DNA of 64,000 bases, taken from NCBI GenBank assembly GCA_964016885.1, contig OZ024740.1, positions 111,600,001-111,664,000 on the forward strand, in the 5' to 3' direction. Source of the stretch: Eledone cirrhosa (lineage: Eukaryota). This document shows, one piece after another, positions 27,414-64,000 of the stretch. Position 1 is the stretch's first letter; every line of letters begins with the position of its first letter. The notes under the pieces are model-generated. The model searched no databases. It was not told where the DNA came from and was given only the letters and a program-made list of their open reading frames with translations. Position numbers and translations under genes: made by a program.

Positions 27414-30400
27414 CTACAGGCTTATAAACAGAGAAGGCCCAATCGCTCGGGCCATTTTCGCTTCATTCACCCACCTTTCAGTAAATTTACTGGGGTGCAG
27501 TGCCTCTCTCTCCACCCTGATTCTCCTTCTAAAGTGATACTTAAAGAATGGAATCAATTGTTGTCCGGAGAGAAAGGCATCTGTCTTCAGTCCTCTCAAC
27601 CTCGTCCACCATATGACTTCTTTCACCATAGCCACAGAGGAAAACCGCCTCTCTTTCGTTTTTGAAAGAGTCTGGCGGTTTGATCCTTACTATGGACTCG
27701 GCAGTCAACTGTATTTGTCCCATACGCGACAGCAGTTGTTCTGCATAGTTCCACAGGTCGCTTACGCCCGGGCAGTGTACAATTGCGTGCAGAACTGTTT
27801 CAATGTCCTGCGCACATCTTGGACACGTCCTCTTGGAAGGATCCCTGCCAGGGCGTCCGTGCCTGTAGATCTTGTCACGAACCGGTAGAGCTCCTCGGTA
27901 GCACTGCCAGGCCAGGGACCTCTGGAAGTTGTCCATAGGTCCCGGGCGGAAAGTCCTACCAAACATACTGGTGAGCTCATCGTCTTCGACGCCCAGAGTC
28001 TCTCCGAGCACATCGTCGCCCTTGTAACGTACAATCCCTCTATAGAATGTCGAAGTGGAGTCTCCACTGATTGCTGCGCCCGCTTGCCAGAGGACTGTGA
28101 GCGCCTGAGCGCATTCAATGTGCCAGGCGCCCATCGTTTTCGGTCTTTTCTTCACCCAGGACTGCAGCTCCGTTAGCGAGACGAGCTGTGGGAAAGCCTG
28201 TCTCACAAACGGTGCCCACACCGGTTGGGGGTCGGTGAGGAATACCTGGAGATGCCGCAGCCTCAGCGCATATTTGCGCATCATCAGCCACGGCATTCCC
28301 AGCCCTCCGTTGGAAGGGTGCTGACAGCAGACGGATCTCCTCACCAGCGGAGCCTGCTTCTTCCACAGAAACTGGAAGAGCATGCGTTCCATCTTGGCGA
28401 GGTGTTCACGGGGACAAGGCACGACAGTCAAGCGGTGGTAGATGACGGACGCTATGAAAGTGTTCGCCACCTCCGCTCGACCTTTCAAGGAGAGTTTGCA
28501 CTCTGCCCACTTCTGAGTGAGTGCAAACACCTTGGCCGTGACCTCGTTCCAGTTTTTTTCCACCTGGAGGTCTGGACCGAACCAGACCGCGAGCAATTTC
28601 ACCGGTCCGTCCGTCCAGCGTCCAACGACGCTGTCGGATGTCATCGGTTTGCCTCTCCACGTACCGAGTTGCAAACCGACAGACTTGTCTGGGTTTAGTT
28701 TTGCTCCCGTCAGCGTTTCGTATTCTTTCAGTATGTTGCCGATCACCCCGATTTCCGAGGTGCTCGACACCATTACTGTCACGTCGTCGGCATAAGCCGA
28801 CGCCGCTTTGCGCAGTCCCGGTTCTAGGGGGATGCCCTGCAACAGCTCCAATTTCCGCAGTAGTGGCTCTAGAGTCAATACATACAGAATGGAGGAGAGA
28901 GGGCATCCCTGTCGAATGGAACGCGTGATTGCGAACGGCTCCGATAGGTAGCCGTTCACCTTGACCCTCGAGCAGATGCTGGTGTGCATCGCCTCGATCC
29001 ATCCTCTGAACACGGGACCGAAACCGGCCGCCTTGAGAACCGCTTCCAAGTATCGATGGTCGACCCTATCGAATGCCTTAGACTGATCCAAGTTGATCAG
29101 AGCCCCACCGAAGCCGGGTTTACTACCCACCCTCTCTATGATGTATCGCATGAGGTGGAGGTTGTCGTGTATGGACCTGGTCGGGATTGCACACGTTTGC
29201 GCTTTCCCTACCAGGTTCTCGACGACAAGCGCCAACCTCGTCGCTAGCACCTTGGCCAAAATCTTTAACTCTGTGCTGAGCAGAGTTATGGGCCTGAAGT
29301 TGTTAATTTCGTACCCCTTGTTCTCGTCTTTCCTGATCAGCGTTACTACGCCCTTGCCTGCAGAACTGGGAATTCTCCCGTTCTGCTGCCAATTGCAGTA
29401 GACGGCTTCGAGGACGCCAGAGAACAAGTCCGGCATGCCTATGTAAAATTCGTAGGGTAGACCATCTAGACCGGGTGACTTGCGTTTCCCGCAGCGGCCC
29501 AGAGCGTCCCGTATCTCAGTGTCCGTGATCGGTCTTTCGCAGAACTCGGCGTCCGTGTTCGAGAGACGCGGCAGGCCGTCGAGGTATGAACTAAAGTCCA
29601 TTGTCCCGTTCGGCTCACCGTCGTTCTGCTCAAACAGTCGCGCAAAGTGCCGCTGAAAGGCCGCGCACATTTGCTTGGGGTCAAGTAGCACGCGTCCGTT
29701 TTGGTCTTTCAAAGACCGAATCGTGGACTTGTTGCCACTTTTTGCCTCCGCCACTCGGGCCCAGCTGACAGCTTTCGCTCCTTCGTTTCCTAGAGCACGT
29801 GTTTTGCTTCTGACCACGCAGCCTTCGTGTTTCGCATCGAAGAACTGGTCCAGTGCCGTTCTCGACGCTAACACTCTAGCCGCGTTGCCACTTCTAAGTG
29901 CCTCCTCTACCTTGGCTACTAGTTCTCTTTCTATTCTGTTTTTCTCTAAGGCTAACTCTCTGCTATACCATATCGATTCTATTCTAATTGCTTTCTTGAG
30001 AGAGTACCACCATCTATTGTTGACGATGGCTCCCGTTAACTGTTGCTTGACTAGTTTACTTATCCGTTCACTGTAAGCTTTACGTGCCGGCAACGACACG
30101 TTCAGCTTCCAGTATCCGGGACCCTGTCTATGTATTCTATCACGGTTGACTAAGTAGACGACTAACTTGTGATCTGAACAGGCAACCATGTGCATTCGTG
30201 GACAGCTTAACATATCCTTGTCCCTTTCTCTAATGAAGAACCTATCTAAATACGATCTAGATGTCCCACTGCGGTTTACCCACGTCCACTGTGGTGCAGT
30301 CGGGAAATCCAGTCGATACCTATCGGCCAGTTGGAATTGGCCGATTAAAGTTTTGAGGCTGTTGCACCCCTCTCTACTGGGACATGCTCCCACATAGTCC

Positions 30401-30853
30401 CATCGTGCATCTAGGATACCATTCCAGTCCCCCACTAAAAGTAAGGAGCGAGACGTTCCTAGAAAAGACTGTAGACGCTTAAAGAAATCTGGCCGTGATC
30501 TGATTGCCTGGTCGGGGCATAAACGGCCACCAGTCTGAAGGCTCCACCTCCAATACTGTTCGCGTCTAGGACTACCAGTCTACCCTCCGTGTCCAAGTGT
30601 ACTTGCTGTACTTCGACGTCCAGGTTCTTCTGAAACATGACAACCACTCCCCCTCCACCTCCTGGCTGACAGAGAGATGCGTAGATCTCAAAGTCATCGA
30701 AAGTGGGGGTTAGTTGCTGCCTGTTGTGAATCCTGGACTCAGTGATGGCTTTTAATCTATACCGTGTGATCTAAGGTCGTTTAAAAGTTGGCCTTGTTTC
30801 GAGGGCATCCCTAGGCCACGCACATTCACGGTTCCAACTCGTAAACCAGCCAT
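27414..30853 (-). pseudogene. E1 ORF2: APE endonuclease, reverse transcriptase and C-terminal Zn finger (frameshifted)
   Basis: GDWNG, SRSYLDRF, SDHKLV, GPGYWKLN, KSPGLDG, NFRPITLL, LDQSKAFDRV, RQGCPLS, AYADD, CPRC...HAIVHC; ends GPSLFISL*. Confidence 0.95.
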
Positions 30854-30898
30854 GTTGGTGAAGAAAAGTTGGAGAAAAAGGACGAAAGGTGCACTTAC
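27414..30898 (-). other. Putative GT-AG intron spanning all of E1 ORF2 (3485 nt)
   Basis: Donor AAAG|GTAAGT overlaps the ORF1 stop. Acceptor CCTTCTCTGTTTATAAGCCTGTAG|G is the ORF2 stop. Both are conserved in the other copies. Confidence 0.55.
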
Positions 30899-32772
30899 CT
30901 TTTCGTTTCCTGGAGATCGGGTTGTTCAATCTCCATTTGGGTGCTGGATGGGGTGTTGGGTGGGGTGGGGAAACCTTTCAACAGGACGCGGTTGATGGGT
31001 TTGTGGCAGGGGTTGCCCACGTCCAGTGAAAATTTAATTTTCAGGTCTTTATAGGTTTCCATAGAAACCCTTATAAGTTTAAGGTGTGGAGACGATTCTG
31101 CCTTGACGAAAGTTTTGCCCTCCGTCTCCACCTTGGGGTTTTGGGAGATGACCTCCATCAAACTCTTGTTGTTTGTGTTGATGTATGCGTATTGTTGTTT
31201 GTGTTTTTGTTGTATTGTTTTAGTTTGTTGTTCATCCGGGAGTTTTCTTTTTATGGTGGGTGCTTGTGTTTGGGGTGGTGTTGGTGCTGGTTTTGCTGAT
31301 AGGGGGATGTTTGACTGTGGTGTTGTTTGTGTTGTTGTTTGTGTCTGTGGTTGTGTGTTGGTGTTGGTGATTGGAGTTTTGGGGGTTTTGTGGTGTCTCT
31401 TTTTTTGTTTTTTGGATTTCCGCGGTTCTCCCTCTTCTTCACTTAAAGAAGGAGAAGCAGCTTCATCCGTCGATGAATAATCATCGTCAGGTGTGTGGGG
31501 TAAGGGTATGTTGTGTGGTGGTGGTGGTGTTTCGGTATGTGTGTTTGTGGTAGTGTTTGATGGAGTGGGATGGAGTGGGGATGTGTTCTTCAGGGGTGTT
31601 GTCTCTGTTTTTTCTGTTGTTGTTGGTTGAGTGCCTGTTTGTTTTGGTGTGGTTGCTCGTTTCGTCTGCCGTTGTACTTGTGGTGGTGGTGGTGGTTGTT
31701 TTGGTGTTGGTGTTGGTAATAGCGTTTTTTTTATGATGTTGCTGTTGTGTGTTTGTGGACAAGAGGCTTTTAGGTGAGATGTGCTACCACAGCGAAAGCA
31801 GTGAAATTTTCTTCCTTCTACCGAAATGTTTATTTTGTTGTCATTATCAATAACGACTCTTTCGGGTATTTTGGAGATTCACTCCGGTTTCATTTGCAAC
31901 AGAATCTCCAAATCGGTGCCCGTCCACCTTTGTCGAATGGATTTTCGTATCGAAAGTATTATGTCTGTTTCTGGCTCTACGAAGCCAGCCAAGATCCACC
32001 AGATGTTAATGCTTGGAGGTATGTTTTTTATTTTTATTTTTTGTGTCCTTTTCCCCATGTATGTAGGGAAAAAGGTGTATGCTTTTGACACTATTGGTGT
32101 CACAGAGTTTTTTTGGGCCAGTGCCTCGCTTTTAAACAGTACGGAAACACTTCCGTACTGTCTTCCTCGCTGGAGAAAATCGACATTTCCTAGAATCTCC
32201 TTGAAAGAATCTTCTATATCTGACTGATTAACAAATGTCGGTTTTCTTGACGAATTTGACACAGTCCTAAAAGTGACTGATCGGCGGTTTGTGTCTTCCT
32301 TTATTTCAAGGGGTGAGTTAATTCTAAACCCACCTCTTTCTTCGAAAGTTACAAATGTTCTCCCTTGCTGGAGCATATCTCTTGCGTTGGAGATATCAAG
32401 ATTTATAAAATCTTGTTTCTTGTTGACTGTGTCAGCAAAAGACATTTTCTTTTTTTGTGTGATGTTGTTGTTAATAATGATGTTATCGTTGTTGGAAATT
32501 TTATGTGTAGATGTATCTGTAGAGTTGTTGATGTCTTTTTCATGTGTATGTATGTCAATGGGTTTTTTTGCCGTGTTTTCCCGTGTGTTATTGTCATTTT
32601 TCTCCGCTTCGGCGGTAGAAATTGTAACATTTTCAAATGTTGATATATTTTTTTCTTTTGTGACAGTATCTATGGCAACGTCCATAGCAGCAGAAGCAGA
32701 TATAACGTTAATATCTGCCTCTTTCTCTCTCTTTTCTCTATTAACGTTCTCCAGCGTTCTAGTGTTGCTCAA
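30895..32772 (-). pseudogene. E1 ORF1 (RRM-like region and CCHC zinc knuckle), disrupted
   Basis: Knuckle CFRCGSTSHLKASC at ~31759-31800. Premature TGA at 31879. The C-terminal block KPINRVLLK is shared with E5 and E6. Start codon appears to be ATG mutated to TTG. Confidence 0.85.
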
Positions 32773-32890
32773 GATTTTTTTACTTTGTAAAATTTGATAT
32801 TTTAAAACAAACTTTTAAATAAAATTTTCGCCCCTACAGGGGCGAAAAATGGGATTACCACCCAGCTGACAATTCAGCTTGGGGGTTAAT

Positions 32891-32959
32891 CTACAAAGTG
32901 TTGTATTTTTTTCAAACAATTAGATCGGTTTTTTGCATAGAAATTAACAAAAAACTTAC
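32891..32959 (-). other. Putative 69-nt 5' UTR intron of E1
   Basis: CCG|GTAAGTTTTTTG...CTAAT...CACTTTGTAG|. The same position and near-identical length occur in E5. Confidence 0.6.
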
Positions 32960-32990
32960 CGGCGATATTCCACACGTTAGACAGAAAGAG

Positions 32991-33027
<37 letters not shown>

Positions 33028-33029
33028 TA

Positions 33030-34824
33030 TTTCTTTATTAGCCACAGGGGCACAAAAGAAGGGGACAAATACAAAGGGGGAAGTTTACATACAATAAAAA
33101 CGTGTAAAATGTTATCACAGATGGAATTTAAAAGTTAGTCGATTTTCCCCAATAGAGGGAGACAGTTTATATGGGTAACACATACCCCCGAAAAAAATGT
33201 GCAACCCTCATCTCCAGGAGTACGAAGAGCTTGTACTCCTTTCCTCTCCTCCTCCTTTTCCTCAATCTACAGGCTGATATAGAGAGAAGGCCCATTCACT
33301 CGGGCCATTCTCGCCACTTTCACCCACCTTTCATAAAACTTGCTGGGGTACAGCACCTCTCTCTCCATCCTGATTCTTCTTCCAAAGTGGTATTTGAAAA
33401 AAAGAATCAGTTGTTGGCCGGAGAGAAAGGTGTCTGACCTCAGCCCTTTCAACCTTGTCCACCATACAACCTCTTTCGCCATAGCTATCACACAAAGGAA
33501 AACCGCCTCTCCTTCGTTTTTGAAGGAGGGTGGCGGTTTGATCATGAAAATGGACTCGGTGGTCAACTGGATTGGTCCCACCCGCGACAATAGTCGTTCT
33601 ACATATCCCCACAGGTCAGTGACGCCCGGGCAGTGTATGAATGTGTGCACGACGGTTTCTTCGTCTCGCACGCACCTCGGACAGATCTTTTTTGCAGGGT
33701 CCCTGCCCGGGCGCCCATGTCTGTAGAGCTTGTCTCGAACTGGTAGAGCTCCTCGGTAGCACTGCCAGGCCAGGGACTTTTGGAAGTTGTCCATCGGTCC
33801 CGGGCGGAAGGTCCTACCGAACAGACTGGCCAGTTCATCTTCCTCCACGCCTAGAGTTTCACCGAGCGCGTCGTCGCACTTGCTGCGGACCAACCCTCTA
33901 TAGAATGACGAAGTGGAGTCTCCACTGACCGCCGGGTCCGCCTGCCAGAGGGCTGTGAGCGCCTGAGCACATTCGATGTGCCAGTCGCCCATTTTCCTCG
34001 GTCTCTGCTTGACCCAGGACTGCAGCTCGGTCAGTGAGACGAGTCGTGGGAAGGCTCGCCTCACGAACGGGGCCCACACCGGTTGTCCGGTGAGGAATAC
34101 GTAGAGATGCCGCAGCCTGAGCGCGTGTTTGCGCATCGTCAACCACGGCATCCCCAGCCCTCCGTTAGAAGGGTGTTGGCAGCAGATGGATCTTCTTACC
34201 AAAGGAGCCCGCCTCTTCCAAAGGAATCGGAAGAGGGCGCGCTCCATTTTGGCGAGCGTTTTGGCTGGACAAGGCACGACGGTCAAGCGGTAGTAGATGG
34301 CGGACGCTATAAAAGTGTTCGCCACCTCCGCTCGACCTTTCAAGGATAGTTTGCACTCGGCCCACTTCTGGGTGAGTGCAAACACCTTGGCCGTCACTTC
34401 GTTCCAGTTCTTCTCCACCTGGAGGTCCGGACCAAACCAGACCCCGAGCAGCTTTACCGGTCCTTCCGTCCAGCGTCCGACGACGCCATCGGAAGGCATC
34501 GGTCTGCCTCTCCACGATCCGAGTTGCAAACCGATGGACTTGTCCCGGTTCAGCTTCGCTCCTGTGAGACTTTCGTATTCCTTTAGTAAGGTGCCGACTT
34601 TCTCGATTTGCGAGGCGCTCGACACCATTACTGTCACGTCGTCGGCCTAGGCCGACGCCGCTTTCCGCAGTCCCGGTTCCAGAGGGATGCCCTGCAATAG
34701 CTCCAGCTTCCGCAGTAGTGGCTCGAGAGTCAGTACGTACAGAAGGGAGGAGAGAGGGCATCCCTGTCGAATGGATCGCGTAATATGGAACGGCTCCGAG
34801 AGGTAACCGTTCACCTTGACCCTT
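33030..34824 (-). mobile_element. Tx1 element E2, 5'-truncated within RT
   Basis: ORF2 C-terminal 456 aa ending GPSLYISL* at 33267. YADD tyrosine mutated to TAG (~34648-34650). (GATA)n on both sides. Confidence 0.95.
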
Positions 34825-34868
<44 letters not shown>

Positions 34869-34870
34869 TA

Positions 34871-36182
34871 TTTCTTTTATTTGCCACTAGGGCATCAAAA
34901 GTGGGACAAGTACAAAGGGGGGAGTTTACACAAAAAGGCGTCCTCAATAAGGAGGAGGCAATAACAAAATATAAAAATAAAATAAGATATAACAAAAAAT
35001 AAAATTTTTAACAAAATCCTCAATAGAGAGGAGGCGCCTTGGGGGGTCGCACACACCCCCGAAAAAGGTGTGCAACCCTTCTCCTCAGGAGCACAGAGAA
35101 GGGGTGCTCCCTTGGTCTTTCATCTTCCTCACCTATAGTCTGATGTAGAGTGAAGGCCCATTCACACGGGCCATTCTCGCCACTTTCACCCATCTTTCAT
35201 AGAAACGGCTGGGGTGCAGCACCTCTCTCTCCATCCTGATCCTTCTTCCGAAATGATATCGGAAGAAACGGACCAGTTGTTGGCCAGAGAGAAAGGTGCC
35301 CGACCTCAGTCCTTTCAGACGCGTCCACCATACAACCTCTTTCGCCATGGCTATTACGCACAGAAACACCGCCTCTGCTTCATCTTTGAAGGGGGGAGGC
35401 GGCTTGATCATTACAATAGACTCGGTGGTCAACCGGATCGGTCCCACCCTTGACAGCAGTTGTTCGACATAGCCCCACAGATCGGCTACGCCCGAGCAGT
35501 GTACTAATGCGTGTGCAACGGTTTCCTCGTCGCACACGCATCTGGGACAGATCTTTTTGGCGGGGTCCCTACCCGGGCGCCCGTGTCTGTAGAGCCTTTC
35601 TCGAACGGGTAAAGCCCCTCGGTAGCACTGCCAGGCCAGGGACTTCTGGAAGTTGTCCATAGGTCCCGGGCTGAATGTCCTACCGAACAGGCTGGCCAGT
35701 TCGTCCTCCTCCATGTCTAGGGCTTCTCCGAGGGCGTCGTCGCACCTGCTGCGCACCAGCCCTCTATAGAATGTTGCGGTGGAGTCTCCACTGATAACCG
35801 GATCCGCCTGCCAGAGGGCGGTGAGCGCCTGGGCACACTCAGTGTGCCAGGCGCCCAGTTTTCTCGGTCTTTGCTTGACCCAGGATTGCAGCTCGGTGAG
35901 TGGGACGAGTCTGGGAAAGGTTCGTCTCACAAACGAGGCCCACACCGGTTGTCCGGTGAGGAATACGTAGAGGTGCCGTAGCCTTAATGCGTGTTTACGC
36001 ATCATTTGCCACGGCATCCCCAGCCCTCCTTTCGAAGGGTGTTGACAGCAGATGGATCTCCTCACCATAGGAGCCCGCCTCTTCCAAAGGAATTGGAAGA
36101 GCGCGCGCTCCATCTTGGTGAGGGTTTCCCTTGGGCAGGGCACTACGGTCAGGCGGTAGTAGATGACGGACGCTATGTAGGT
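34871..36182 (-). mobile_element. Tx1 element E3, 5'-truncated
   Basis: Open ORF2 C-terminus ending GPSLYIRL* at 35133. (GATA)n on both sides. Confidence 0.95.
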
Positions 36183-36249
<67 letters not shown>

Positions 36250-36256
36250 GGATAGA

Positions 36257-39200
36257 TTTCTTTATTTGCCACAAGGGCGCACAAGTAAAGGGGACAATAC
36301 AAGGACATATGCCGGGAATTTTACATACAATCGTGCAAAAAAAGCTTTTTAAAACAAAGAAATTCAACGATCGAAATCCCCAATAGGGGGAGGGGAGACG
36401 TTACAAATGGGTTGTTTAATACCCCGTCGATAGAACAACCCTCAACTTCAGGAGCGTGTTGTGCAAGTGCTCCCTTCTTCCTTTTGCTCTCTTCTTTAAC
36501 CTACAGGCTTATAAACAGAGAAGGCCCATTCACTCGGGCCATTTTCGCTTCATTCACCCACCTTTCAGTAAATTTACTGGGGTGCAGTGCCTCTTTCTCC
36601 ACTCTGATTTTTATTCTAAAGTGATACTTAAAGAGGGGAATTAATTGTTCTCCGGAGACAAAGGCATCTGTCCATTGCCACTGTACAGAGGAAAACCGCC
36701 TCTCTTTCGTTATGAAAGGGGCTGGTGTTTGATCCTTACTATGGACTCGGCAGTCAACTGGATTTGTCCCATACGCGACAGCAGTTGTTCTGCATAGTTC
36801 CACAGGTCGCTTACGCCCGGGCAGTGTACAATTGCGTGCAAGGTGGTTTCAATGTCCTGCTCGCATTGTGGACGCGTCCTCTTGGAAGCGTCCGTCCCTG
36901 TAAATTTTATCTCGAACGGATAGAGCTCCTCGGTAGCACTGCCAGGCCAGGGACCTCTGGAAGTTGTCCATAGGTCTCGGGCGGAAAGTCCTACCGAACA
37001 GACTGGTGAGCTCGTCGTCTTCGACGCCTAGAGTCTCCCCGGGAACGCCGTCGCACTTGTAAAGTGCTAACCCTCTCAAGAATGTCGAAGTGGAGTCTCC
37101 TCTGATTGCTGTGCCCGCTTGACAGAGGACTGTGAGCGCCTGGGCGCATTCAATGTGCCAGGCGCCCATCTTCTTCGGTCTTCGCTTGACCCAGGACTGC
37201 AGCTCCGTCAGCGAGAAAAGTTGTGGGAAAGCGGCCTGTCTCACAAACGGTGCGAACACCGGTTGGTCGGTGAGGAATACCTGAAGATGCCGTAGCCTCA
37301 GCGCATGTTTGCGCATCATTAGCCACGGCATGCCCAGCCCTCCTTTGGAAGGGTGTTGACAGCAGACGGATCTCCTCACCAGTGGAGCCTGCTTCTTCCA
37401 CAGGAACTGGAAAAGCATGCGTTCCATCTTGGTGAGGTATTCACGGGGACAAGGTACGACAGTCAAGCGGTAGTAGATGACGGACGCTATGAAAGTGTTC
37501 GCCACCTCCGCTAGACCTTTTAAAGACAGTTTGCACTCTGCCAACTTCTGGGTGAGCGCAAATACCTTGGCCATGACCTCGTTCCAGTTTTTCTCCACCT
37601 GGAGGTTTTGACCGAACCAGACCCCGAGCAATTTCACCGGTCCTTCCGTCCAGCGTCCCACGACGCTGTCGGATGGCATCGGTTTGCCTCTCCATGTTCC
37701 GAGCTGCAAACCGACAGACTTGTCCAGGTTCAATTTTGCTCCTGTGAAACTTTCGTATTCCTGTAGTAGGTTGCCGATTACCTCGATTTCCGAGGTTTTC
37801 GACACCATTACAGTCCCGGTTCTAAAGGGATGCCCTGCAAAAGCTCCAACTTCCGCAGTAGTGGCTCTATAGTCAATACGTACAGAATAGTGGAGATAGA
37901 GAGCATCCCTGTCGAATGGAACGCGTGATTGCGAACGGCTCCGATAGGTAGCCGTTCACCTTGACCTTCGAGCAGATGCTGGTGTGCATCGCCTTGATCC
38001 AGCCTCTGAAAACGGGACCGAAACCGGCCGCCTTGAGAACCGCTTCCACGTATCGATGGTCGACCCAATCGAATGCCTTAGACTGATCTAAATTGATCAG
38101 AGCCCCACCGAAGCCGGGTTTATACCCACCCTCTCTATGGTGTATCGCATGAGGTGGAGGTTGTCGTGTATGGACCTGGTCGGGATTGCACATGTTTGCG
38201 CTTTCCCTACCAGGTTTTCGACAACAAGCGCCCACTTCGTTGCTAGCACCTTGGCCAAAATCTTTAACTCTGCGTTGAACAGTTTTATGGACCTGAAATT
38301 GTTTATTTCGTCCCCCTTGTTCTTGTCTTTCCTGATCAGCGTTACTACGCCCTTGCCTGCAGAACTGCGAATTGTCCCGTTCTGCTGCCAATTGCAATAG
38401 ACGGCTTCGAGGACGCCAGAGAACAAGTCCAGCATGCCTATGTAAAACTCATAGGGCAGACCATCTAGACCGGGTGATTTGCGTTTCCGGCAGCGGCCCA
38501 GAGCGCCCCGTATCTCAGTGGCTGTGATCGGTCTTTCGCAGAACTCGGCGTCCATGCTCGAGAGACGCGGCAGGCCGTCGAAGTATGAACCAAAGTTCAT
38601 TGCCCCGTTCGGTGCACCGCCCTTCTGCTCAAACATTTGCGCAAAGTGCCGTTGAAAGGCCTCGCATATCTGCCTGGGGTCAAGTAGCACGCGTCCGGTT
38701 TGGTCTTTCAAAGACCGAATCGTGGACTTGTTGCCACTTTTCGCTTCCACCACTCGGGCCCAGCTAACAGCTTTTTCTCCCTCGTTTCCTAGAGCACATG
38801 ATTTATTTATGACCACGCAGCCTTCGTGTTTCGCGTCGTAGAACTGGTCCAGTGCCGTTCTCGATGCTAGCACTCTAGCCGCGTTGCCACTCCTAAGCGC
38901 CTCTTCTACTTTGGCTTCTAGTTCTGTTTCTGATTTGTTTTTCTCTAAAGCTAATTCTCTGCTAAACCCTATCGATTCTACTCTAATTCCTCTCTTGAGA
39001 GAGTACCACCATCTATTGTTGACGATGGCTCCCGTCAACTCTTGCTCAACTAATCTACGTATCCGTTCACTGTAGGCTTTTCGTGACGGCAACGGCACGT
39101 TCAGCTTCCAGTATCCGGGTCCTTGTCTATGTATTCTATCACGGTTGACTATGCAGACGACTAGTTTGTGATCTGAATAGGCAACCATGTGCATTTGTGG

Positions 39201-41201: not shown

Positions 41202-41280
41202 AGTTAGTGATGTTTAGTTGTTGTTGTTGTTGTTGTAGTTACTGCTGTTGTTGTTGTTGTTGTTGATGATGATGGTTACT

Positions 41281-43130: not shown

Positions 43131-43149
43131 ACAAGGGCAACAATAATAA

Positions 43150-51900: not shown

Positions 51901-51934
<34 letters not shown>

Positions 51935-52212
51935 CATGTGTACAAACTACTCAATTTTCTGTTATTGGGTATCTTTATAAACATAATGTACAATAGAAAC
52001 AATAAACATACGAGTGAATAATATATTCAAAGAATGTGAGTTCAAACAGCGCAGATAATCTTCTACATTTTCTTGTTCGTCTTCTCTTTCAGTATTCATT
52101 AAACTTTTCAGTACCATATTTTTAATGAAAGATATTACCAATCTGTTTTAAGTAATTTTTATAATAATCAAGAATTTGGATTGATAGAGAAACTTTCTGA
52201 CTATTATTCTAG

Positions 52213-52425
52213 ATTAGCAGTATCGATAGAGCGTTGGACATACTTTGCAATATAGAGTTGCGGCCCTTTACGTTCTGAGTTCAAATCCCGCTGAAGTTAG
52301 CTTTGCATTTCATCCTTACGCGGGTCGATAAAATAAGCACCAGTAATGCACTGGGGTCGATTTAATTGAATCGACGAACACTCGCCTCCCAAAACTTTGC
52401 TGGCCTTGTGCCTATACTATAAATC
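52213..52425 (+). mobile_element. tRNA-derived SINE
   Basis: B box GAGTTCAAATCC and body TTTCATCCTTACGCGGGTCGATAAAATAAG. Confidence 0.8.
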
Positions 52426-53674: not shown

Positions 53675-56600
53675 TTTCTTTATTAGACACAAAAGAAGGG
53701 GACAAATACAAAGAGGGAAGTTTACATACAATAAAAACGTGTAAAATACTATCACAAATGCAATTTAAAAATTAATCGATTTTCCCCAATAGGGGGAGAC
53801 ATTACATATGGGTAACACATACCTCCGAAAAAAAATGTGCAACCCTTATCTCCAGGAGTAGGAAGAGTGAGATCCCCTTTCCTCTCTTCCTCTTTTTCCA
53901 CAACCTACAGGCTGATATAGAGAGAAGGCCCATTCACTCGGGCCATTCTCGCCACTTTCACCCACCTTTCATAAAACTTGCTGGGGTACAGCACCTCTCT
54001 CTCAATCCTGATTCTTCTTCCAAAGTGGAATTTGAAAAAAAGAATCAGTTGTTGGCCGGAGAGAAAGGTGTCTGACCTCAGCCCTTTTAACCTCGTCCAC
54101 CATACAACCTCTTTTGCCATAGCTATCACACAAAGGAAAACTGCCTCTCCTTCGTTTTTGAAGGAGGGTGGCGGTTTGATAATGACAATGGACTCGGTGG
54201 TAAACCGCATTGGTCCCACCCGCGACAATAGTCGTTCTACATACCCCCACAGGTCGGTTACGCCCGGGCAGTGTACGAATGTGTGCGCAACGGTTTCTTT
54301 GTCTCGCACGCATCTCAGACAGATCTTTTTCGAAGGGTCCCTGCCCGAGCGCCCATGTCTGTAGAGCTTGTCTCCTGTGCCAGTCACCTATTTTCCTCGA
54401 TCTTTGCTTGACCCAGGACAGCAGCTCGGTCAGCGAGACGAGTCGTGGGGAGGCTCGCCTCACGAAGGGGGTTCACACCGGTTGTCCGGTGAGGAATACG
54501 TGGAGGTGCGCAGCCTGAGCGCGTGTTTGCACATCGTCAGCCACGGCATCCCCAGCCCTCCGTTTGAAGGGTGTTGGCAGCAGATGGATCTTCTCACCAA
54601 AGGAGCTCGTTTCTCCCAAAGGAATTGGAAGAGCGCGCGCTCCATTTTGGTGAGGGTTTTGACTGGACAAGGCACCATGTTCAAGCGGTAGTAGATGACG
54701 GACGCTATAAAAGTGTTCGCCACCCCCGCTCGACCTTTCAAGGATAGTTTGCACTCGGCCCACTCCTGGATGAGCGCAAACACCTTGGCCAAAACCTCGT
54801 TCCAGTTCTTCTCCACCTGGAGGTCTTGACCAAACCAGACCCGAGCAGCTTCACCGGTCCTTCGGTCCAGCGTCCGACGACGCCATCGGAAGGCATCGGT
54901 TTGCCTCTCCACGATCCGAGTTGCAAACCGAAGGGCTTGTCCCGGTTCAGCTTCGCTCCTGTGAACCTTTCGTATTCCTACAGTAAGGTGCCAACTTCCT
55001 CGATTTGCGAGGTGCTCGACACCATTACTGTCGTGTCGTTGGCATACGCCGAATCCGCTTTCCACAGTCCCGGTTCTAGAGGGATGCCCTGCAATAGCTC
55101 CAACTTCCTTAGTAGTAGCTCGAGAGTCAGTACTTACAGAAGGGAGAAGAGAGGGAATAACTGTCGAAGGGATCGCGTGATATGGAACGGCTCCGAGAAG
55201 TAGCCGTTCACCTTGACCCTTGAGCAGATGTTGCTGTTGTGCCTTGGAGCAATCCAGCCCCTGAACACGAGTCCGAAGCCTGCCGCTTCGAGCACCGCAT
55301 CCAGGTAACGATGGTCAACCCTATCGAAAGCCTTAAACTGATCCAAGTTGATCAGGGCCACACCGAAGCCGGGTTTAGACCCTACCCTCTCTATGATGTA
55401 TCGCATGAGGTGGAGGTTGTTGTGTTTGGACCTGGTCGGGATTGCGCATGTCTGCGCTTCTCCCACCAGGTTTTCGACGACAAGAGCCAGCCTCTTTGCC
55501 AACACCTTGGCCAAAATCTATAACTCTGTGTTTAGCAGAGTTATGGGCCGGAAGTTGCCTATGTCATCCCCCTTATACTCGTCCTTCCTGACTAGTGTGA
55601 CTATGCCCCTGGTCACAGAACTGGGAATACTCCCGTTCTGTTGCCAGTTGCAGTAGATCGTTTCCAGGAGACCGGAAAACAAGTCCGGCATCGCTACGTA
55701 AAATTTGTAGAGTACACCGTCGAGACCTGGAGATTTGCGTTTGCCGCATTGGCTCAGCGCGTCCCCTATCTCAGCGGCTGAGATCGGCGTTTCGCAGAAA
55801 TTCGCCTCGATGTCCGAGAGTCGCGGTAGGTCGTCGAAGTATGGACCGAAATCCATAGACCCTCCCGGCGCGCCGCCCTGCCCGAACAGCTGAGCAAAGT
55901 GCCGCTGAAAGGCCGCGCACATCTGCTTCGGTTCACGTATCACGCGTCCGTCTTGGTCCTTCAAAGACAGAATCGTTGACTTGTTGCCACTTTTCGCCTC
56001 CGTCACTCGGGCCCAGCTAATAGCTTTGGCTCCCTCGTTACCCAGAGCACGTATTTTGCTTCTGATAACGCAGCCCTCGTGCTTTGCGTCGAAGAACTGG
56101 TCCCAGCCCGTTCTCGTTGCTAGCACGCTGGCAACGTTGCCACTTCTAATTGCCTCTTCTACTTTATCTACCAGTTCCTTCTCTGTCCTATTTCTATCTA
56201 ACGCTAATTTTTTACTAAAAACTAACGAGTCTAATCTAACTGCCCTCTTGAGCGAGTACCACCATCTGTTGTTGACAATGGCCCCTGTCAAGTGCTGTTT
56301 AACTAAAGTGCTAATCCGTCTATGGTAGGCTTTGCATGTCGGTAACGACAAGTTCAGCTTCCAGTAGCCGGGTCCTTGTCTATGGGTTCTATCAAGGTTG
56401 ACCATGCAGGTCACTAGTTTGTGATCTGAATAGGCAACCATGAACATTTGTGGACAGCTTAACATATCCCTATCCTTATTTCTAACTAGAACCCTATCTA
56501 GTTACGATCTAGATGTTCCGCTAACATTAGTCCACGTCCACAGTGGCACAGTCGGAAAATCTAGTCGATATCTATCGGCCAGGTCAAATCGGCCGATTAA

Positions 56601-58738
56601 CTGTTTGAGGCTGTTACACCCCTCTTTATCGGGACATGCTCCCACATAGTCCCAACGTGCATCTAGGAATCCATTCCAGTCCCCCACTAAAAGCAAGGAG
56701 CGGGAAGTTCCCAGAAAAGTCTCTAGACGTTTGAAGAAGTCTGGCTGCGGTGTCCCGGACGGGGCATATGCGGCCACCAGCCTGAAAAGGCTCCACGTTC
56801 AGTACCGCGAACGTCTAGGACCACCAGTCGACCCCCCGGGTCCAGATGTACAGTCTGTGTTACGAGGTCCAGGTGTTTCCGCAGCAAAACGGCAACCCCA
56901 CCCCCACCTCCCCCTTGACAGTGAGATGCGTAGATCTCAAAGAAGGGGGCCAGCTGTCGCTCGCTGTGGATCCTGGACTCGCAAATGGCTACTACATCCT
57001 TACTGTGCGACCTGGGGTCGTTTAAGAGTTTGCCCTGTTTCCAGGGCATCCTCAGGTCGCGTACATGCCCACATCCAACTCTTATATTGTCTATGTTGGT
57101 GCTGAAAAGTTAAAAGAAGAGGAAAAGAAATCACTCACATCTTTGTCTCCTGAGGACCAGGCTGCACGATTTCCATGGGGGTGTTGGAGGGGTTGTCTGG
57201 GTGGGTGGTGGTTTCCAGCGGGGTGGGGGCGGAGGTGTTTGGTGGGGAGGGGGTGTCTGGTGGGATGGGGGTGTCTGGGATGGGGAGACATTTGAGTAGG
57301 ACGCGGTTAAGTGGTTTCACGCAGGAATTCCCCACGTCCTTTTCAAATGTTTCTTTTAGGGACCTATAAGTTTGTATAGAGACCCTAATCAGTTTTAGGT
57401 TCGGTTTTTTTATTATTTTTATTAGAGTTTGCGAAAGTTTTCCCTTCGGTTATCACCGAAGGGTTGTTCGTGATGGTCTCCATTAGTGTTTTGTTTTCAG
57501 TGTTTATGTATGTGTAAATGAAATTTTCTTGTGCTATATTTGTGTTTGTCTGTAATTCTTATGTGTGCTTTCGTTTTGTTGTAGGCATTTTGGTTTCAGG
57601 AGTTGGGTTTTTGTTTGTGATGATTTTGTTGTTTGTGTTGGTGGTTGTATGTTTGTGGTAGTGTTTGCTGGTTTTTTTGTTTTTGTGGTGCCTTTTTTTT
57701 CTTTTCGAGCGATAGGGTTCTCCTTCGTCTTCACTGGGTGATGACGAGATAGCCTCATCTGTTGTATCTTCTGCGTGATTGAGGAGGGTATGTCTTGGGG
57801 AGCTGTTGTGTTTGTGGGTGTTTTTGCAGTGGTTTGAGGTGGAGTGGGGTCGAGTGGGACTGTGCTTGCGGTTTGGTTTGTTGTTCTTGTTTTGGTTATG
57901 TTTGTGTTTTTGTTGTTGTTGTTGTTGTTGTGGTGGTTGTGTTGTTGTTTTGGGTGTTGGCAGTAGTGCCTCTTTTTTTGCAGCTAGTTGCGGACAGTAA
58001 GCCTTCAGGTGACCACTGCTTAAACAGTGGTAACATGAAGGCCGCCTACCCTCAACAGAAATGTTTATGTATGAATTCCCATCCAGAGGCACACGTTGGG
58101 GTATTTTAGCTATCCGTTCTGGCCTCATTTGGACCGGAACTTCCAGGCTTGTGCCATTGAATGTGCCTCTGGAGGACTTTCCCACCGAAATGATGGTGTC
58201 TTCATCGAAATCGATGAAGCCAGTCAAAATCCACCAGACGTTTATGTTTTAGTGTAATGTTTGAAATTTTAATTTTCTGGGTTATTTTTCCCATATATGT
58301 GGGGGGAAAAAGGTGTAAAGGGGCGATACAATTGGCGACACAGAATATTTTTGTGCCGTCAATTGGTCTTTCATCAGCACCGAAATGCTTTCGAAAAGTT
58401 TACCTTTTTGGATGAAGGCAATATCCTTCATTCAATTCTTCACAACCAGTTCAATTTCGTTTTGGGATAATTGCACTGGTTTTTTAGACGAATTTGAAAC
58501 TGTCCTAAAAATTATTGTTTTCAGGATAGTTTCTTTGCGTAACTGTTGAGAAGTGATGCTGAAAGCACCACTCTCACCAAAAGTTACGTACTGTTTTGCA
58601 TCGCTTAACATTTCCCTAGCATTGGAAATGTCAAGGTATGTGAACAGTTCCGTCTTTTGGGCGGTTTGAGCAAAGGAAATATTTTCATGTTCGTGGAGTT
58701 GTTCGTGTTGCTGTTGTTGTTGGTGGTGTTGTTGTTAT

Positions 58739-58775
<37 letters not shown>

Positions 58776-59180
58776 CTGGTTGGTGTTGTTTAAATTTTCG
58801 ATGTTATTGGTGTTGGTGTAGTCAACGTCCGACATCATGTTTACGAGTCTCTCAAAACTGACGACATTTTCAACGTCTTTCAATGAGGTGGTGAGAGGAG
58901 ATGACTGCGAGCTTAACACTCTTACCGCTTCTCCACCACTTCTAGTACTGGACGCGGCGTCCATGACTTAATGCAAAATTTTGTTTACAATTTTTCACCG
59001 AAAAAATTTTTTTCAAACGAAAATTTCACCCTAGGGAGGGGTGTAGATGAGTTGGCCCACCGTCTGAAGGTCCAGACGTGGGGTCAAGCTATAAAATAGT
59101 ATCAAATTTAACAATAAATGTTTGATTTCTTATGTAGAAAATCAACAAAAACTTACCAGCGAACTGGCGCACGTCTATCG
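53675..59180 (-). mobile_element. Tx1 element E5, full length but decayed (E2 subfamily)
   Basis: ORF1 58964-57135 with knuckle CYHCLSSGHLKAYC. ORF2 57094-53905 with ATG mutated to ATA, frameshifts and an internal deletion near 54376. GATA repeats on both sides. Confidence 0.95.
59089..59156 (-). other. Putative 68-nt 5' UTR intron of E5
   Basis: CTG|GTAAGTTTTTG...ACTATTTTATAG|, positionally homologous to the E1 intron. Confidence 0.6.
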
Positions 59181-59417
59181 AGATGAGATATAGATAGATA
59201 TATTTCTTTATTTACCATAAAGGCATAAAAAGAAGGGACAAATACAAAGGGGGAGTTTACATATAATCGAGTAAAAAGGGTGTAACATGAAAATAATCGA
59301 AAATAACCTCAAAAGGGAGGGGACGTGATGGGGGTTGCACACACCCCCGAAAAAGTGTGCAATCCTTTGCCCGGGAAGCACATGGAGAAGGTGCTCCCCT
59401 CTCCTTTACTTCTTTAC

Positions 59418-62400
59418 CTACAGGATGGTATACAGAGAAGGCCCATTTACACGAGCCATTCTCGCCACTATCACCCACCTTTTATAAAACTGCCTGTGGC
59501 CAAGCACCTCTCTCTCTCAATTCTTATCCTTCTTCCGAAGTGATATCGGAAGAAGTAGACCAGACTATGGCCAGAGAGGAAGTTGCCTGACCTCAGACCT
59601 TTCAATCGTGTCCACCAAACAACCTCTTTCAACATGGCTATTACGCACAGAAAAACCGCCTTTGCTTCCTTTGTGAAGAGGGGAGGCGGTTTGATTGTCA
59701 TCACGGACTCGGCGGTCAATTTAATCGGCGCCACCCGCGACAGCAGTCGTTCGGCGTAGCCCCACAGATCAGCCACGCCCGGGCATTGCACCAATGCGTG
59801 CGCAACGGTTTCTTCGTGACGCACGCATCTAGGGCAAATCTTTTTTGAGGGATCCCTGCCCGGGCGCCCGTGTCTGTAGAGCCTCTCTCGAACGGGTAGA
59901 GCCCCCCGGTAGCACTGCCAGGCCAGTGACTTCTGGAAGTTGTCCATTGGTCCTGGGCCGAAAGTCCTACCGAACAGGCTGGCCAGTTCGTCTTCTTCCA
60001 TGTCCAGCGACTCTCCAAGGGTGTCATCGTCCCTGCTAGCCACCAGCCCTCTATAGAATGATGAGGTGGATTCTCCACCGATGGCCTGGCCCGCTTGCCA
60101 GAGAGCCCTGAGCGCCTGAGCACACTCAGTGTGCCAGTCTCCCAGTTTTCCGGATCTTTGCTTGACCCAGGACTGTAGCTCGGTGAGCGAGACGAGTCTC
60201 GGAAAGGCTCGTTTCACGAACGGAGCCAACACCGGTTGACCAGTGAGGAATACCTGTAGGTGCCGTAGCCTTAATGCGTGCCTACGCATCATCAACCACG
60301 GCATCACCAGCCCTCCTTTCAAAGGTTGTTGGCAGCAGATGGATCTTCTCACCATAGGAGGGCGCTTCTTCCAAAGAAATTGGAAGAGCAAGCGTTCCAT
60401 GGTGGTGAGTGTTTCCTTAGGGCAAGGCACGACAGTCAGGCGGTAGTAAGTGACGGACGCTATGTAAATGTTCGCCACCTCCGCCCGGCCTTTTAGGGAC
60501 AGCTTACACTTGGCCCATTTCTGGTTAGTGCAAACACCTTGTTCGTAACCTCGTTCCAGTTCTTTTCCACCTGGAGGTCCGGTCCAAACCAGACCCCAAG
60601 CAACTTTACCGGGCCCTCCGTCCAGTGTCCAACGACACCGTCAGGAGGCATCGGTCTGCCTCTCCACGTTCCGAGTTGCAGCCCGATGGATTTTTCCCGG
60701 TTCAGTTTCGCTCCTGACAACCTTTCGTACTCCTCCAGTAAGGTACCGATCGCCTCGATCTCCGAGTCGGTCGATACCATTACTGTTACGTCATCGGCGT
60801 AGGCCGACACCGCTTTACTCAATCCTGGTTCCAGGGGGATACCCTGCAACAACTCCAACTTCCTCAGTAAAGGCTCGAGAGTCAATACGTACAGAAGGGA
60901 GGAGAGAGGGCACCCCTGTCGAATGGATCGTGTGATTTCGAACGGCTTCGAAAGGTAGCCGTTCACCTTGATCCTAGAACAGATATGGTTGCTATGTAAG
61001 GCAGTGATCCAGCCTCTGAAAACAGGACCGAACCCAGCCGCCGCTAGCTCCGCATCCAGGTAACCATGGTCGACCCTATCGAAGGCCTTAGACTGATCCA
61101 AGTTGATCAGGGCCTCACCGAAGCCGGGTTTGTTGCCAACCCTCTCTATGATGTATCGCATGAGGTGGAGGTTATCGTGAATGGACCTGGATGGGATAGC
61201 ACATGTCTGCGCATCTCCCACCAGGCCACCCACGACAAGCGCCAACCTCTTTGCTAACACCTTGGCCAAAATCTTTAACTCTGTGTTTAGCAGGGTTATG
61301 GGCCGAAAATTATTTATACTATCTCCCTTGTTCTTGTCCTTCCTCACCAGCGTGACTACGCCCTTGGCTACAGAACAAGGAATTCTCCCGTTCTGCTGCC
61401 AATTGCAGTAGACCGCTTCGAGGAGTTCGGAGAAGAAGACCGGCATTGCTAAATAAAGTTCGTAAGGTATACCATCGAGACCTGGAGATTTGCGTCTGCT
61501 GCATTGGCTCAGCGCATCTCCGATCTCATCAGCCGAGATTGGCCCCTCGCAGGACTCTGCCTCTTCGCTCGAGAGACGCGGCAGGCCGTCGAGGTATGGA
61601 CCGAAATCCACGCCCCCGCCCGGACCCTCGCCTCCTCCGAACAATCGGGCAAAGTGCCTTTGAAAGGCCTCGCACATCTGCTTAGGCTCCCGGATCACCC
61701 GTCCATCTTCGTCTTGCAACGACCGGATGGTGGATCGATTTCCACTCTTAGCTTCTGTCACGCGGGCCCAGCCAACGGCTTTGGCCCCCTCATTATCTAG
61801 AGCACGTATTTTACTTCGAATGACGCAGCCTTCGTGCTTTGCATCGCAAAGCTGGTTCAAGGCCGTCCTCGATGCCAGCACTCTGGCCACATCTTCGCTC
61901 TTGATTGCCTCTTCTAATTTACCTGTTAATTCTTTCTCGTTTCTATTCCTATCGGCAGCTAACATCTTGCTATAACTTATTGATTCTGTTCTAATCTCTC
62001 TTTTGAGAGATGCCCACCATCGGTTGTTGACGATTGCACCCGTCAACCTCTCCTTAACTAATCTGCTAATCCGGTTTCTGTAAGTCTCTTTTGCCGGTAA
62101 AGACAAATTAAGTTTCCAGTAACCGGGACCCTGTTTATGTGTTTTCTCGAGATTGACTACGCAGGTCACTAATTTGTGATCCGTGTAGCCAACCGTGCGC
62201 ATTTCTGGACAGCTTAATATGTCCCTATCCTTACTTCTAACTAAGAATCTATCTAAGTACGATCTAGATTGACCACTGTGGTTTCTCCAAGTCCAGGTAG
62301 GCACAGTTGGAAAATCTAGTCGATATCTATCGACCAAGTTAAAACGGTCGAGTAACCCCTTGAGGATGTTACACCCCCCTCTATTAGGACATGCTCCTGC

Positions 62401-62856
62401 ATAGTCCCAACGTGCATCTAGGATGTCATTCCAATCCCCCGCTAGAAGCAGGGAACGCGACGTTCCCAGAAAAGTCTCCAAACGCTGGAAGAAGACGGGC
62501 CGTTCAGATCCGAAAGGGGAGTAGACGGCGACCAGTCTCAAGGCCGCACTTTCACTACTGCCAACGTCTAGCACCAACAAACGACCCTCCGGGTCCGAGT
62601 GCACAACCTGTACGGCAAGACCCAAGTGTTTTTGCAGCAGTACGACAACCCCACCCCCACCTCCAGGCTGACAGAGAGATGCATGCACCTCAAAGTCATC
62701 GAAGGTGGGGGCCAGCTGCCGCACGACGCTGATTCGAGTCTCACAGATAACCATTACATTTATACTACATGACCTGAGGTCATTTAGAAGCTTTGCTTGC
62801 TTCCAAGTTGAGCCCAGGCCACGTGCATTCAAACATCCTACTCTTAACACATCCAT
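59418..62856 (-). pseudogene. E6 ORF2 (APE + RT + Zn finger), nearly intact
   Basis: 787-aa open segment from MDVLRVGCLNARGL through AYADD. Frameshifts near 60515 and 59495. Ends GPSLYTIL*. Confidence 0.95.
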
Positions 62857-62889
62857 GTGGGCGGCAGAGCCAAAGGAGAGTGTAGAGAC

Positions 62890-64000
62890 CTACCTTTCCG
62901 CTTCCCGGGGTTCGGGTTGCACGGCTTCCATGGGGTCGGGGGTGTTGGGTGAAGGGGTGTCTTGTGGTGGTGTGGGGTCGTCAGTGTGTGGTGGGGTTGG
63001 GGTGTTTGGAGTTGTGTTGGGGAGGGAAAGGGGGGGGAAGCTTTTTAGTAGGACGCGGTTTATGGGTTTGACAGAGGGTGGTCCTACGTCCTCCTTAAAA
63101 TCCTTTTTTAGTTTTTGGTAGATGTTCATTGGGATCTTTATTAATTTTAAATGTGGGTAGTTTTCTGAAGAAACAAAGTTTACACCTTCGGTTTGTACCG
63201 AAGGATTATTGTATATGAGTTCATTTAATTTATTATTGTTTCTGTTGATGTAAGTATAGTGTAATGTCTTTTTTTCGGATGGTGTGAGTGTTTCGAAGAG
63301 GGGAGGGCAGGTTTGGTTTTGTTTGTTGCTGGAGGGGTGTTTTCTGTTTTGTTGGATTGTGTTGAGATTTGGGTGGGGGTTGTTTGGCCTTGTGTGTTTT
63401 GCACATGTTTTCCTTTTTTTCTTTTAATCTGTCTGAAGGACTCCGTTTCTTCCTCCGAATTCGTTGGGTTATCTTCAGTGTTGGAGGGAAGAGGTATGTT
63501 TGCTGGTAATGTTTCCGTGTTGGTTTTCTTTGTGGGGGAGATGGATGTCACTATGTTAGACTGTGTTGTGTGTTGTGTCTGCGGTGGTTGTGTTGTTTTA
63601 TTGAGTGAGAGGTTGGGTGGGCCTGTATTTTGTTTTGGGGTAATGTTTTGTGACTGTTTGTGTTGTGGTGGTGATGTGGTTTTACTGAGGGACGGGTTGG
63701 GTGGGACTGAGTTTTGTTGTTTGTTTATCTGTTGTGGTGGTGGTGGTGGAGCTGGTGTTGGTAGCAGGGTTTTCTTTTTGTTGAGTTGGGGACAAGCGGC
63801 CTTCAGGTGCCCTCTGCCTGCACAGATATGGCAGGACGGCCTTCTCCCCTCCACGCTAATGTTTATATACCCGTGGTCCTCTAATAGGATTCTGTCGGGT
63901 ATTTGGGCGATGCGTTCAGGCTTCATTTGCACTACCAGCTCTATACCTGTTCCACTGAACGCATTGCCTGTGGTTTTCCCAATGGAAATCACGTTGTCAT
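62890..64000 (-). pseudogene. E6 ORF1 C-terminal part
   Basis: INISVEGRRPSCHICAGRGHLKAACP knuckle, a P/T/Q-rich linker and the KPINRVLLK block. One interruption near 63225. Confidence 0.85.

Follow-up and report, generated by a model that had tools for sequence, protein, structure and literature searches.

A conserved U1-type splice donor is present at the end of ORF1 in a clade of LINEs of Tx1 type in Eledone cirrhosa, six copies of which (E1 to E6) lie on the minus strand of the window, the 64,000-nucleotide stretch of DNA analysed here. Selection on this donor at the ORF1/ORF2 boundary suggests that the clade needs U1 for something. Skipping of ORF2 by splicing and docking of U1 without regular splicing are about evenly balanced as explanations. 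The skipping reading itself, in which the donor would bind U1 and some transcripts would be spliced to an AG in the ORF2 stop or shortly upstream of it, giving an ORF1-only mRNA, has close to an even chance.

The six copies are APE-RT-zinc-finger non-LTR elements (Pfam) whose 3' ends carry AATAAA followed by (TCTA)n, and they represent only four lineages, A (E1, E4), the B group (E2 of family B2, E5 of B1 type), D (E3) and C (E6). E1 (27176..32985) is a full-length family A element with ORF1 from 32685, ORF2 from 30853 and the poly(A) signal at 27180..27185 before the TCTA repeat, and it carries a stop within ORF1, an early ORF2 stop and a frameshift near 27630. The 5'-truncated copies are E2 (33030..34826, ORF2 stop ending at 33267), E3 (34872..36183, ORF2 stop ending at 35133) and E4 (36257..40560, family A, donor G at 39898, ORF2 stop ending at 36501). 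E5 (53675..59190) has a 5' UTR donor with its G at 59156, an ORF1-end donor with its G at 57138 and an ORF2 stop ending at 53905, and E6 (59203..64000), with its donor G at 62893 and its ORF2 stop ending at 59418, has its 5' end about 1 kb outside the window. At the ORF1 end of family A, at least 40 copies were 99-100% identical; thousands of near-identical young copies are present in the genome.

The elements belong to the L1 superfamily by their ORF2, which combines an APE endonuclease, an RT and a zinc finger at the C-terminus, by their lack of LTRs and by 5' truncation, and the best PDB match of ORF2 was human L1 ORF2p (E 5e-51), with R2 behind. Tx1 elements have an ORF1 with an RRM-like region and a CCHC knuckle, and the ORF1 here agrees with this in having one CCHC at residue 345; its Atlas matches were zf-CCHC clusters, including a ZCCHC3-RBD cluster at 0.89 that serves as a lead only, and a Pfam search with the broken ORF1 of the window gave no match. 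A target preference as in Tx1 elements was also observed, since copies end in TCTA/TATC repeats, are mostly flanked by them and nest in one another's tails. The Tx1-type label is an assignment by architecture: no named Tx1 protein was among the matches of the protein homologue searches. Protein matches included Argonauta hians. The ORF1p search gave no match at E<=0.001, and no relative was found among viral contigs. Two ORFs, an APE-RT-zinc-finger ORF2, one CCHC knuckle in ORF1 and microsatellite insertion are shared with Kibi, Koshi and Keno as described in part of PMC4494074, but the targets differ, being in the present elements (TATC)n and, for families F and K, (TTA)n.

The ORF1-end donor of E1, AG|GTAAGT (30893..30900, minus strand), lies in phase 2 with the ORF1 stop at +2..+4. 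The four donor contexts at the end of ORF1, the six TAG ends of ORF2 and the implied introns of 3485, 3398, 3234 and 3476 nt reported in the initial annotation were all confirmed on the minus strand. Scored with generic weights, the donor ranked first of 298 GTs in the family A representative, and among the 271-321 GTs of each representative it was first in 12 of 15 and second in the other 3. In the profile of 14 families, G at -1, G at +1, T at +2, G at +5 and T at +6 were found in 14/14 and A at -2 in 13/14, so that the conservation of GT at +1/+2 and +5/+6 noticed in the window copies extends to all 14 families and exceeds chance; the T at -1 in E5 belongs to the window copy, its family having G. 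Outside this core, at -3 and from +7 onward, conservation fell to 6-11 of 14 families, and four-fold sites were invariant in just 43 of 210 cases. GTRRGT was present in 95 of the 100 first-listed of 5,418 copies (counted by eye, GT not being required in the search), and the 5 exceptions were singletons.

The donor was maintained in three reading phases, with four independent shifts on the tree: in phase 2 the stop lies at +2..+4, in phase 1 (B2, F, F2) at +6..+8, and in phase 0 (G, H) ORF1 reads through the donor. In relatives with 40% ORF2 identity, AAG|GTAAGT directly follows the ORF1 stop in 72/72 matches (overlapping loci); at the ORF2 end these relatives carry another donor, with a strong acceptor lying 242-263 nt downstream of it. 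Among the relatives, family R6 is without the ORF1-end donor, and a 27% relative adjoins U1 snRNA genes. The invariant core, its survival through four frameshifts and its recurrence after the ORF1 stop in the 40%-identical relatives argue that the donor is selected at the RNA level and is not tied to the stop codon. The "stop-to-stop design" first proposed is not supported, since the donor is kept in three phases and after the stop in relatives, and family K ends ORF2 in TAA (7/7 copies seen).

For the acceptor, a site at the ORF2 stop or 7 nt before it is plausible and is weaker than the donor. In E1 the candidates (27414..27423, minus strand) are the AAG ending at 27421 and the ORF2 stop TAG ending at 27414, and the alternative upstream AG already noticed was found in 5 of the 6 window copies. 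In 6 of 14 representatives no acceptor downstream of the donor scored better than the AG of the ORF2 stop. Two-fold purine synonymous sites were fixed in at least 13 of the 14 families in 27 of 58 cases; the AG is therefore no more conserved than ordinary synonymous sites, and the conservation of the TAG is not significant. The pyrimidine tract codes for a G-x-x-L-x-hydrophobic C-terminus that is also found in 40-60% homologues, and it is weak in F, F2 and G (ranks 17, 8 and 13). The earlier reading of TAG and tract as a conserved signal is thus not borne out beyond chance by conservation alone. The branch point had been described as weak, and no clear one was found. A further acceptor immediately precedes the ORF2 ATG and scores strongly in the B families, F2 and G. 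It was rejected as a general design, since it lies only 30-39 nt from the donor and A, C, D, H and K lack it.

In the Eledone cirrhosa elements the ORF1 stop would be lost on splicing and would have to come from the 3' exon, a point that the initial annotation missed. When the ORF1 frame was joined after the ORF2 TAG, 11 of 13 families reached a stop within 3 codons in their own phase, compared with 7 of 26 in other phases (permutation p 0.009), and with lineages merged the count was 7/8 (p 0.02). This phase-matched test is post hoc, loses strength when only 1 codon is allowed (permutation p 0.085) and comes to about 1 in 16 if only the four phase shifts are counted. The two misses (A and B1/B3) have an in-frame AG at -7, and the chimeric family X, in phase 1, has no early stop after the TAG. 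A conserved acceptor that would give a terminated product is therefore only a candidate feature of the families, and at the stop it is absent in family K (TAA).

Splicing could also leave traces in genomic copies. Five genome-wide junction patterns, covering both candidate AGs in families other than H and K, yielded no ORF2-deleted retrocopy (results of 0, 0, 0 and 1 chance match inside ORF2), and two patterns listing the sequence after the donor yielded none among 53 and 14 copies with an altered donor; searches for unspliced copies, with 2,650 and 5,418 matches, served as positive controls. Precise removal of ORF2 of the SpIRE or HAL1 kind was thus not seen in genomic copies, a negative outcome for one of the tests set by the initial annotation. 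Among the 53 copies without T at +2, 16 have a B-type ORF1 that breaks off exactly at the donor and continues, after a CAG, into a D-type element; in 3 more it is joined to another CAG 75 nt further up. Such chimeras fit splicing of read-through RNA across tandem elements, and retrocopies joined exactly at the donor to CAG sites suggest that the donor is sometimes spliced. Microhomology of at least 2 nt was found at 22 of 32 ordinary junctions, so that an AG beyond the joint of the chimeras says little when taken alone. Of 111 junction calls, about 45 came from one insertion in the B1 reference copy and were discounted by eye. In one further locus (L329) the donor, lacking one base, is joined to a TAG within ORF2, some 125 nt downstream.

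Contigs of three runs of unrecorded kind (X4, X1 and X2) aligned to E1 did not include the proposed joint among 15 of 259 joints listed, which speaks neither for nor against it. The X4/X1 contig-depth ratio over ORF1 exceeded that over ORF2, but it was not used, since parts cannot be ranked by contig depth.

The proposed skipping of ORF2 has in its favour a selected donor with signs of use and a plausible acceptor, and has against it that no ORF2-deleted copy was found. U1 is likely to bind the ORF1-end donor; part of the RNA would then be spliced to the AG at, or just before, the ORF2 stop, the 3' exon would replace the lost ORF1 stop in the predicted ORF1-only mRNA, and unspliced RNA would produce ORF2p and serve as template. 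Spliced RNA may escape copying because ORF2p acts in cis and because a conserved hairpin upstream of the acceptor would leave with the intron. The entire 3' UTR would remain in a spliced RNA, and Tx1 elements are reported to be the likely trans-mobilisers of SINEs (PMC4494074, in part), so the zero retrocopies count against an abundant germline product. The motif may instead be a rarely spliced docking site for U1 that protects full-length RNA, by suppressing cleavage at internal poly(A) signals or by making an intronless RNA resemble a normal Pol II transcript, and in that case the ORF2-stop AG would be incidental; we regard this as possible, though on the unlikely side. It accounts for the zero ORF2-deleted copies, family K and the weak tracts, and it agrees with the donor-like hexamer near the start of every family with its 5' end seen and with the AATAAA counts, which for 14 of 15 representatives are 2-5 in the 2.2 kb that precede the donor, versus 0-2 in ORF2. 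According to the available parts of the sources, U1 also blocks premature termination in Arabidopsis EVD (PMC5580714), and human L1 retains functional donors unused by most transcripts (PMC5860796). The poly(A) signals, however, lie upstream of the ORF1-end donor, not downstream, and docking leaves unexplained both the phase-matched early stops and the paired donor and strong acceptor in the 3' UTR of the relatives.

Regular splicing to acceptors other than the ORF2 stop, inside ORF2, in a tandem neighbour or in host exons, is improbable. The only genomic donor junctions do go to CAGs in another element's ORF1, together with the imperfect junction of L329, but retrocopies can record only products that keep ORF2, and no alternative acceptor ranks highly across families. 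Least credible, and very improbable, is that the motifs merely follow from a terminal Arg codon, a purine after the stop, hydrophobic codons at the C-terminus and shared ancestry. Constraint on the protein does produce a conserved sequence resembling a donor at Arg-Trp-Val near the ORF2 end, and it largely accounts for the pyrimidine tract, so that this reading may still apply to the acceptor. For the donor it is largely refuted, since the motif at the ORF1 end is kept in three frames, and in the 40% relatives even beyond the ORF, with its -2..+6 profile.

In the usual view, a LINE makes its two proteins from a single unspliced RNA. Drosophila copia makes a spliced gag RNA. HAL1 elements are ORF1-only and exist as DNA; unlike them, no ORF1-only copy was found here. 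The closest parallel is the shGAG RNA of the plant Ty1/copia element EVD, which shares a conserved U1-type donor closing the structural ORF; in the part of PMC5580714 available, splicing supplies a stop and leads to excess structural protein, and U1 also protects the full-length RNA. EVD is an LTR element in which gag and pol share one ORF, the intron is short and termination is premature, unlike the bicistronic LINE studied here, which would lose all of ORF2 and keep its normal 3' end. Human L1 is likewise a LINE with conserved functional donors, and its RNA is described in part of PMC5860796 as mostly unspliced, with cis preference and rare spliced retrocopies (SpIREs) that keep ORF2; the splicing events start in the 5' UTR, are called detrimental and concern about 2% of full-length copies, and that part reports no donor at the ORF1/ORF2 boundary, unlike the elements here. 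SpORF2 is another human L1 splicing product (PMC2896524, in part). Drosophila TART resembles the present elements in having splice sites in a non-LTR element, but its introns are in antisense RNA (PMC1636488, in part).

Conserved splice sites in Tx1 elements were not reported in any source that the literature search found, and a splice-made messenger for the first gene only, known for plant LTR elements, was not found in print for LINEs. Skipping of ORF2, if true, would mean that a LINE achieves ORF1p excess much as retroviruses or copia do, and would offer a handle for tissue control; docking only, if true, would be a case of a mobile RNA without introns that is protected by splice signals. 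A wider view, that this LINE clade has regulated splicing as an expression design, with ORF2 removal, a template signal in the intron that would restrict copying to unspliced RNA, tandem splicing that gives new chimeric families and retained 5' and 3' UTR introns in relatives, is tentative and somewhat short of an even chance.

In E1 the 5' UTR hexamer GTAAGT, with a U-rich tail, lies at 32954..32959 (minus strand), about 25 nt from the element start. In the A-D group the hexamer occupies one of two alternative places, and B2 and C have lost the first and have the second. A specific hairpin pairing the pyrimidine tract with the purine-rich stretch round the stop was not supported, being missing from the consensus fold and exceeding 95% of shuffles in only about 4 of 15 sequences. 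A predicted 5-bp hairpin in the last ORF2 codons (27436..27453, minus strand), inside the proposed intron, keeps its pairs in 15/15 sequences with only one-sided (wobble) changes. After the purine-rich stretch, a 3' UTR stem-loop (27362..27388, minus strand) includes one pair in which both partners have changed in 4 of 15 sequences.

The six copies in the window are non-LTR elements in which endonuclease, reverse transcriptase and zinc-finger domains were found, and their closest named homologues are Argonauta hians proteins (60-67%), which makes an octopod host probable. They end in AATAAA followed by a TCTA repeat and sit nested in one another's tails, in a 3.0-Gb host genome rich in microsatellites. 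Their assignment to Tx1 is provisional, being made on architecture and target preference rather than on a tree including named references. The elements form a large, young radiation; 5,418 genomic copies retain the ORF1 end and ORF2 start, and open ORF2 frames of 1,150 codons were observed in many copies. From the fetched copies, 93 elements were sorted into 14 families, with families K, N and O represented by one full copy each in the family tables. Between the main lineages, ORF2 identity was 65-86% and four-fold-site distance 0.24-0.50 for the pairs listed.

Families F and K begin beside (TTA)n, not (TATC)n (5' flanks of L279 and L286), which suggests a target switch inside the clade. In family H, ATA replaces the ORF2 ATG in 4/4 copies (L287, L292-L294) and overlaps the ORF1 stop, and ORF2 may be translated without an AUG. 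A minisatellite (11-bp unit, 168 copies, 93% match, 41280-43131) lies directly upstream of copy E4, and a simple-repeat-rich inverted duplication of ~500 nt (12106-12655 and 13753-14312) gives an identical translation on opposite strands.

The initial annotation had described four donor contexts at the ORF1 end, six ORF2 ends at TAG and the implied lengths of introns spanning ORF2, all of which agree with the window sequence. When scored with generic metazoan weights, not fitted to the species, the ORF1-end GT was the top donor in 12 of 15 representative copies and the second in the other three, among 271-321 GTs per copy. Positions -1G, +1G, +2T, +5G and +6T were invariant over the 14 families and -2A was kept in 13, whereas the flanks (-3, and +7 onward) were kept in only 6-11. 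Since ORF2 four-fold sites were invariant in 43 of 210 cases, the probability that the three donor positions free of stop-codon constraint are all kept by chance is about 1 in 100 (hand arithmetic). GTRRGT was present in 95 of the 100 copies listed (of 5,418, from a search without a GT requirement), and the five exceptions were singletons. The donor lies in phase 2 relative to the ORF1 stop in A, B1, B1a, B3, C, D, K, N and O; B2, F and F2 have it in phase 1, while in G and H it is in phase 0 and ORF1 reads through it. Four independent shifts are implied on the tree. By this comparison of families, the donor motif is independent of the ORF1 stop, and the stop-to-stop coincidence proposed initially becomes an ancestral state and no rule, as the donor is kept in three phases and ORF2 of family K ends in TAA (7/7 copies). 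Selection on the ORF1-end donor is considered very probable.

The acceptor is less secure than the donor. Downstream of the donor, the AG of the ORF2 stop was the best acceptor in 6 of 14 representatives, ranked 2-17 in seven and was absent in K. Conservation of the stop G (13/14 families) is ordinary, because 27 of 58 two-fold purine sites are equally kept, and the pyrimidine tract codes for a C-terminal pattern common to 40-60% homologues. As splicing would delete the ORF1 stop, the following exon must provide one. The joined ORF1 frame stopped within three codons in its own phase in 11/13 families versus 7/26 in the other phases (permutation p 0.009), and in 7/8 merged lineages (p 0.02; p 0.085 at a one-codon threshold), in a post hoc test on related lineages that left out K, whose stop lacks an AG, as well as individual copies carrying private frameshifts. 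In the misses (A, B1/B3), the AG 7 nt upstream would join in frame to the final ORF2 codons. The test favours a putative junction between the ORF1 donor and the ORF2 stop. In the inter-ORF spacer of B, F2 and G copies (e.g. L098), a strong acceptor-like site was observed 30-39 nt past the donor and immediately ahead of the ORF2 ATG; paired with the 5' UTR donor it could yield an ORF2-only RNA in these families.

Altered donors (exon end intact, +2 not T) gave 53 matches, which were sorted by eye into 30 point changes or small insertions, including 12 B2-like copies in shifted register, 3 small deletions and a remainder of joined copies. In 16 of these, a B-type ORF1 end stops precisely at the donor boundary and continues into a D-type element, where the entry site follows CAG in D; in three the partner site is another CAG, 75 nt further upstream, and one falls one base short of the donor, joining a TAG ~125 nt on within ORF2. 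The B/D chimeras (L363-L374; G000:C1:267912418 and others) comprise at least 16 copies plus three second-round copies, possibly a splice-born new family. Read-through RNA over tandem neighbours could be spliced at the donor, and the chimeras copied because ORF2 is retained. Template switching may also have produced such junctions. Of 32 background junctions in unselected loci, 1 was GT-AG compatible, but 22 showed microhomology of at least 2 nt, so an AG at a chimera junction proves little alone. With a background of ~66 junctions in 631 kb, four of them duplications (a reference artefact discounted), two duplication-type events at the donor position are roughly 50 times expectation by a post hoc hand estimate. 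The donor thus seems, from these genomic junctions, to be used, and splicing at least rarely is probable.

Precisely ORF2-deleted genomic copies, which the initial annotation had named as a check, were not found in the assembly: exact junction patterns, covering families other than H and K and missing diverged copies, gave 0, 0 and 0 matches and one chance match inside ORF2, while gap-pattern positive controls gave 2,650 and 5,418, and no ORF2-deleted copy occurred among 53 + 14 altered-donor copies. Cis preference (PMC5860796) can explain this absence. Trans-mobilisation of SINEs by Tx1 elements is, however, reported as likely (PMC4494074), and the missing copies therefore speak against an abundant germline product, unless the intron contains a signal needed for copying. 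A hairpin in the final ORF2 codons, kept in 15/15 sequences with wobble changes only, is a candidate for such a signal. Regular skipping of ORF2, from the donor to the ORF2-stop region, is left in near balance.

The main rival, U1 docking at the donor without regular splicing, is judged somewhat less likely. Wherever the 5' end of a family is visible, a donor-like hexamer is likewise present near the element start, with turnover between two places (G copies are truncated; K has a weaker GTGAGC); it has a U-rich tail and lies 20-75 nt from the start (minus strand 32954-32959 and 59151-59156; 5' ends of L091-L297), and in B2 and C the first site is lost and another lies ~35 nt further on. Donor-like hexamers have a frequency of about one per 2 kb on each strand of the window. 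Two to five AATAAA also lie upstream of the ORF1-end donor in 14/15 representatives. In Arabidopsis EVD, a single donor serves both roles (PMC5580714), so splicing and U1 docking need not exclude one another. Regular splicing of the donor to other acceptors is improbable, and a by-product origin of the motifs is more improbable still.

HAL1 and Drosophila copia splicing serve as comparison systems. No LINE reported to have a conserved ORF1/ORF2-boundary donor or to skip ORF2 was found in the literature searched, most subscription papers, Repbase reports and supplements lying outside its coverage; an Octopus vulgaris survey describes 13 recently active L1-Tx1 families, with no mention of 'splic' in its accessible part (PMC13282606).

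In relatives with 40% ORF2 identity, AAG|GTAAGT stands straight behind the ORF1 stop in 72/72 matches (overlapping loci from a single source); the donor was absent in one array family (L147), and the 27-29% relatives L141 and L185 were without any strong form. The ORF2 end there has a second donor, and the strong acceptor that follows it after 242-263 nt is an obvious one for the ORF1 donor to share. No spliced copies were seen in the arrays examined. These contigs (L147-L183, L187, L191), catalogued under an uncultured Arenicella MAG, consist of LINE units of 6.4-6.8 kb arrayed head to tail, evidently animal DNA within a bacterial genome collection. In the array elements, pairs of donor and acceptor resembling introns occur in the 3' UTR, in two families also in the 5' UTR, and the ORF1-end donor is preceded by a strong acceptor at a distance of 146 nt. 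A relative with 27% identity sits between U1 snRNA genes (L185:3036-3199 and 9961-10137) and is possibly a U1-targeting Tx1 family.
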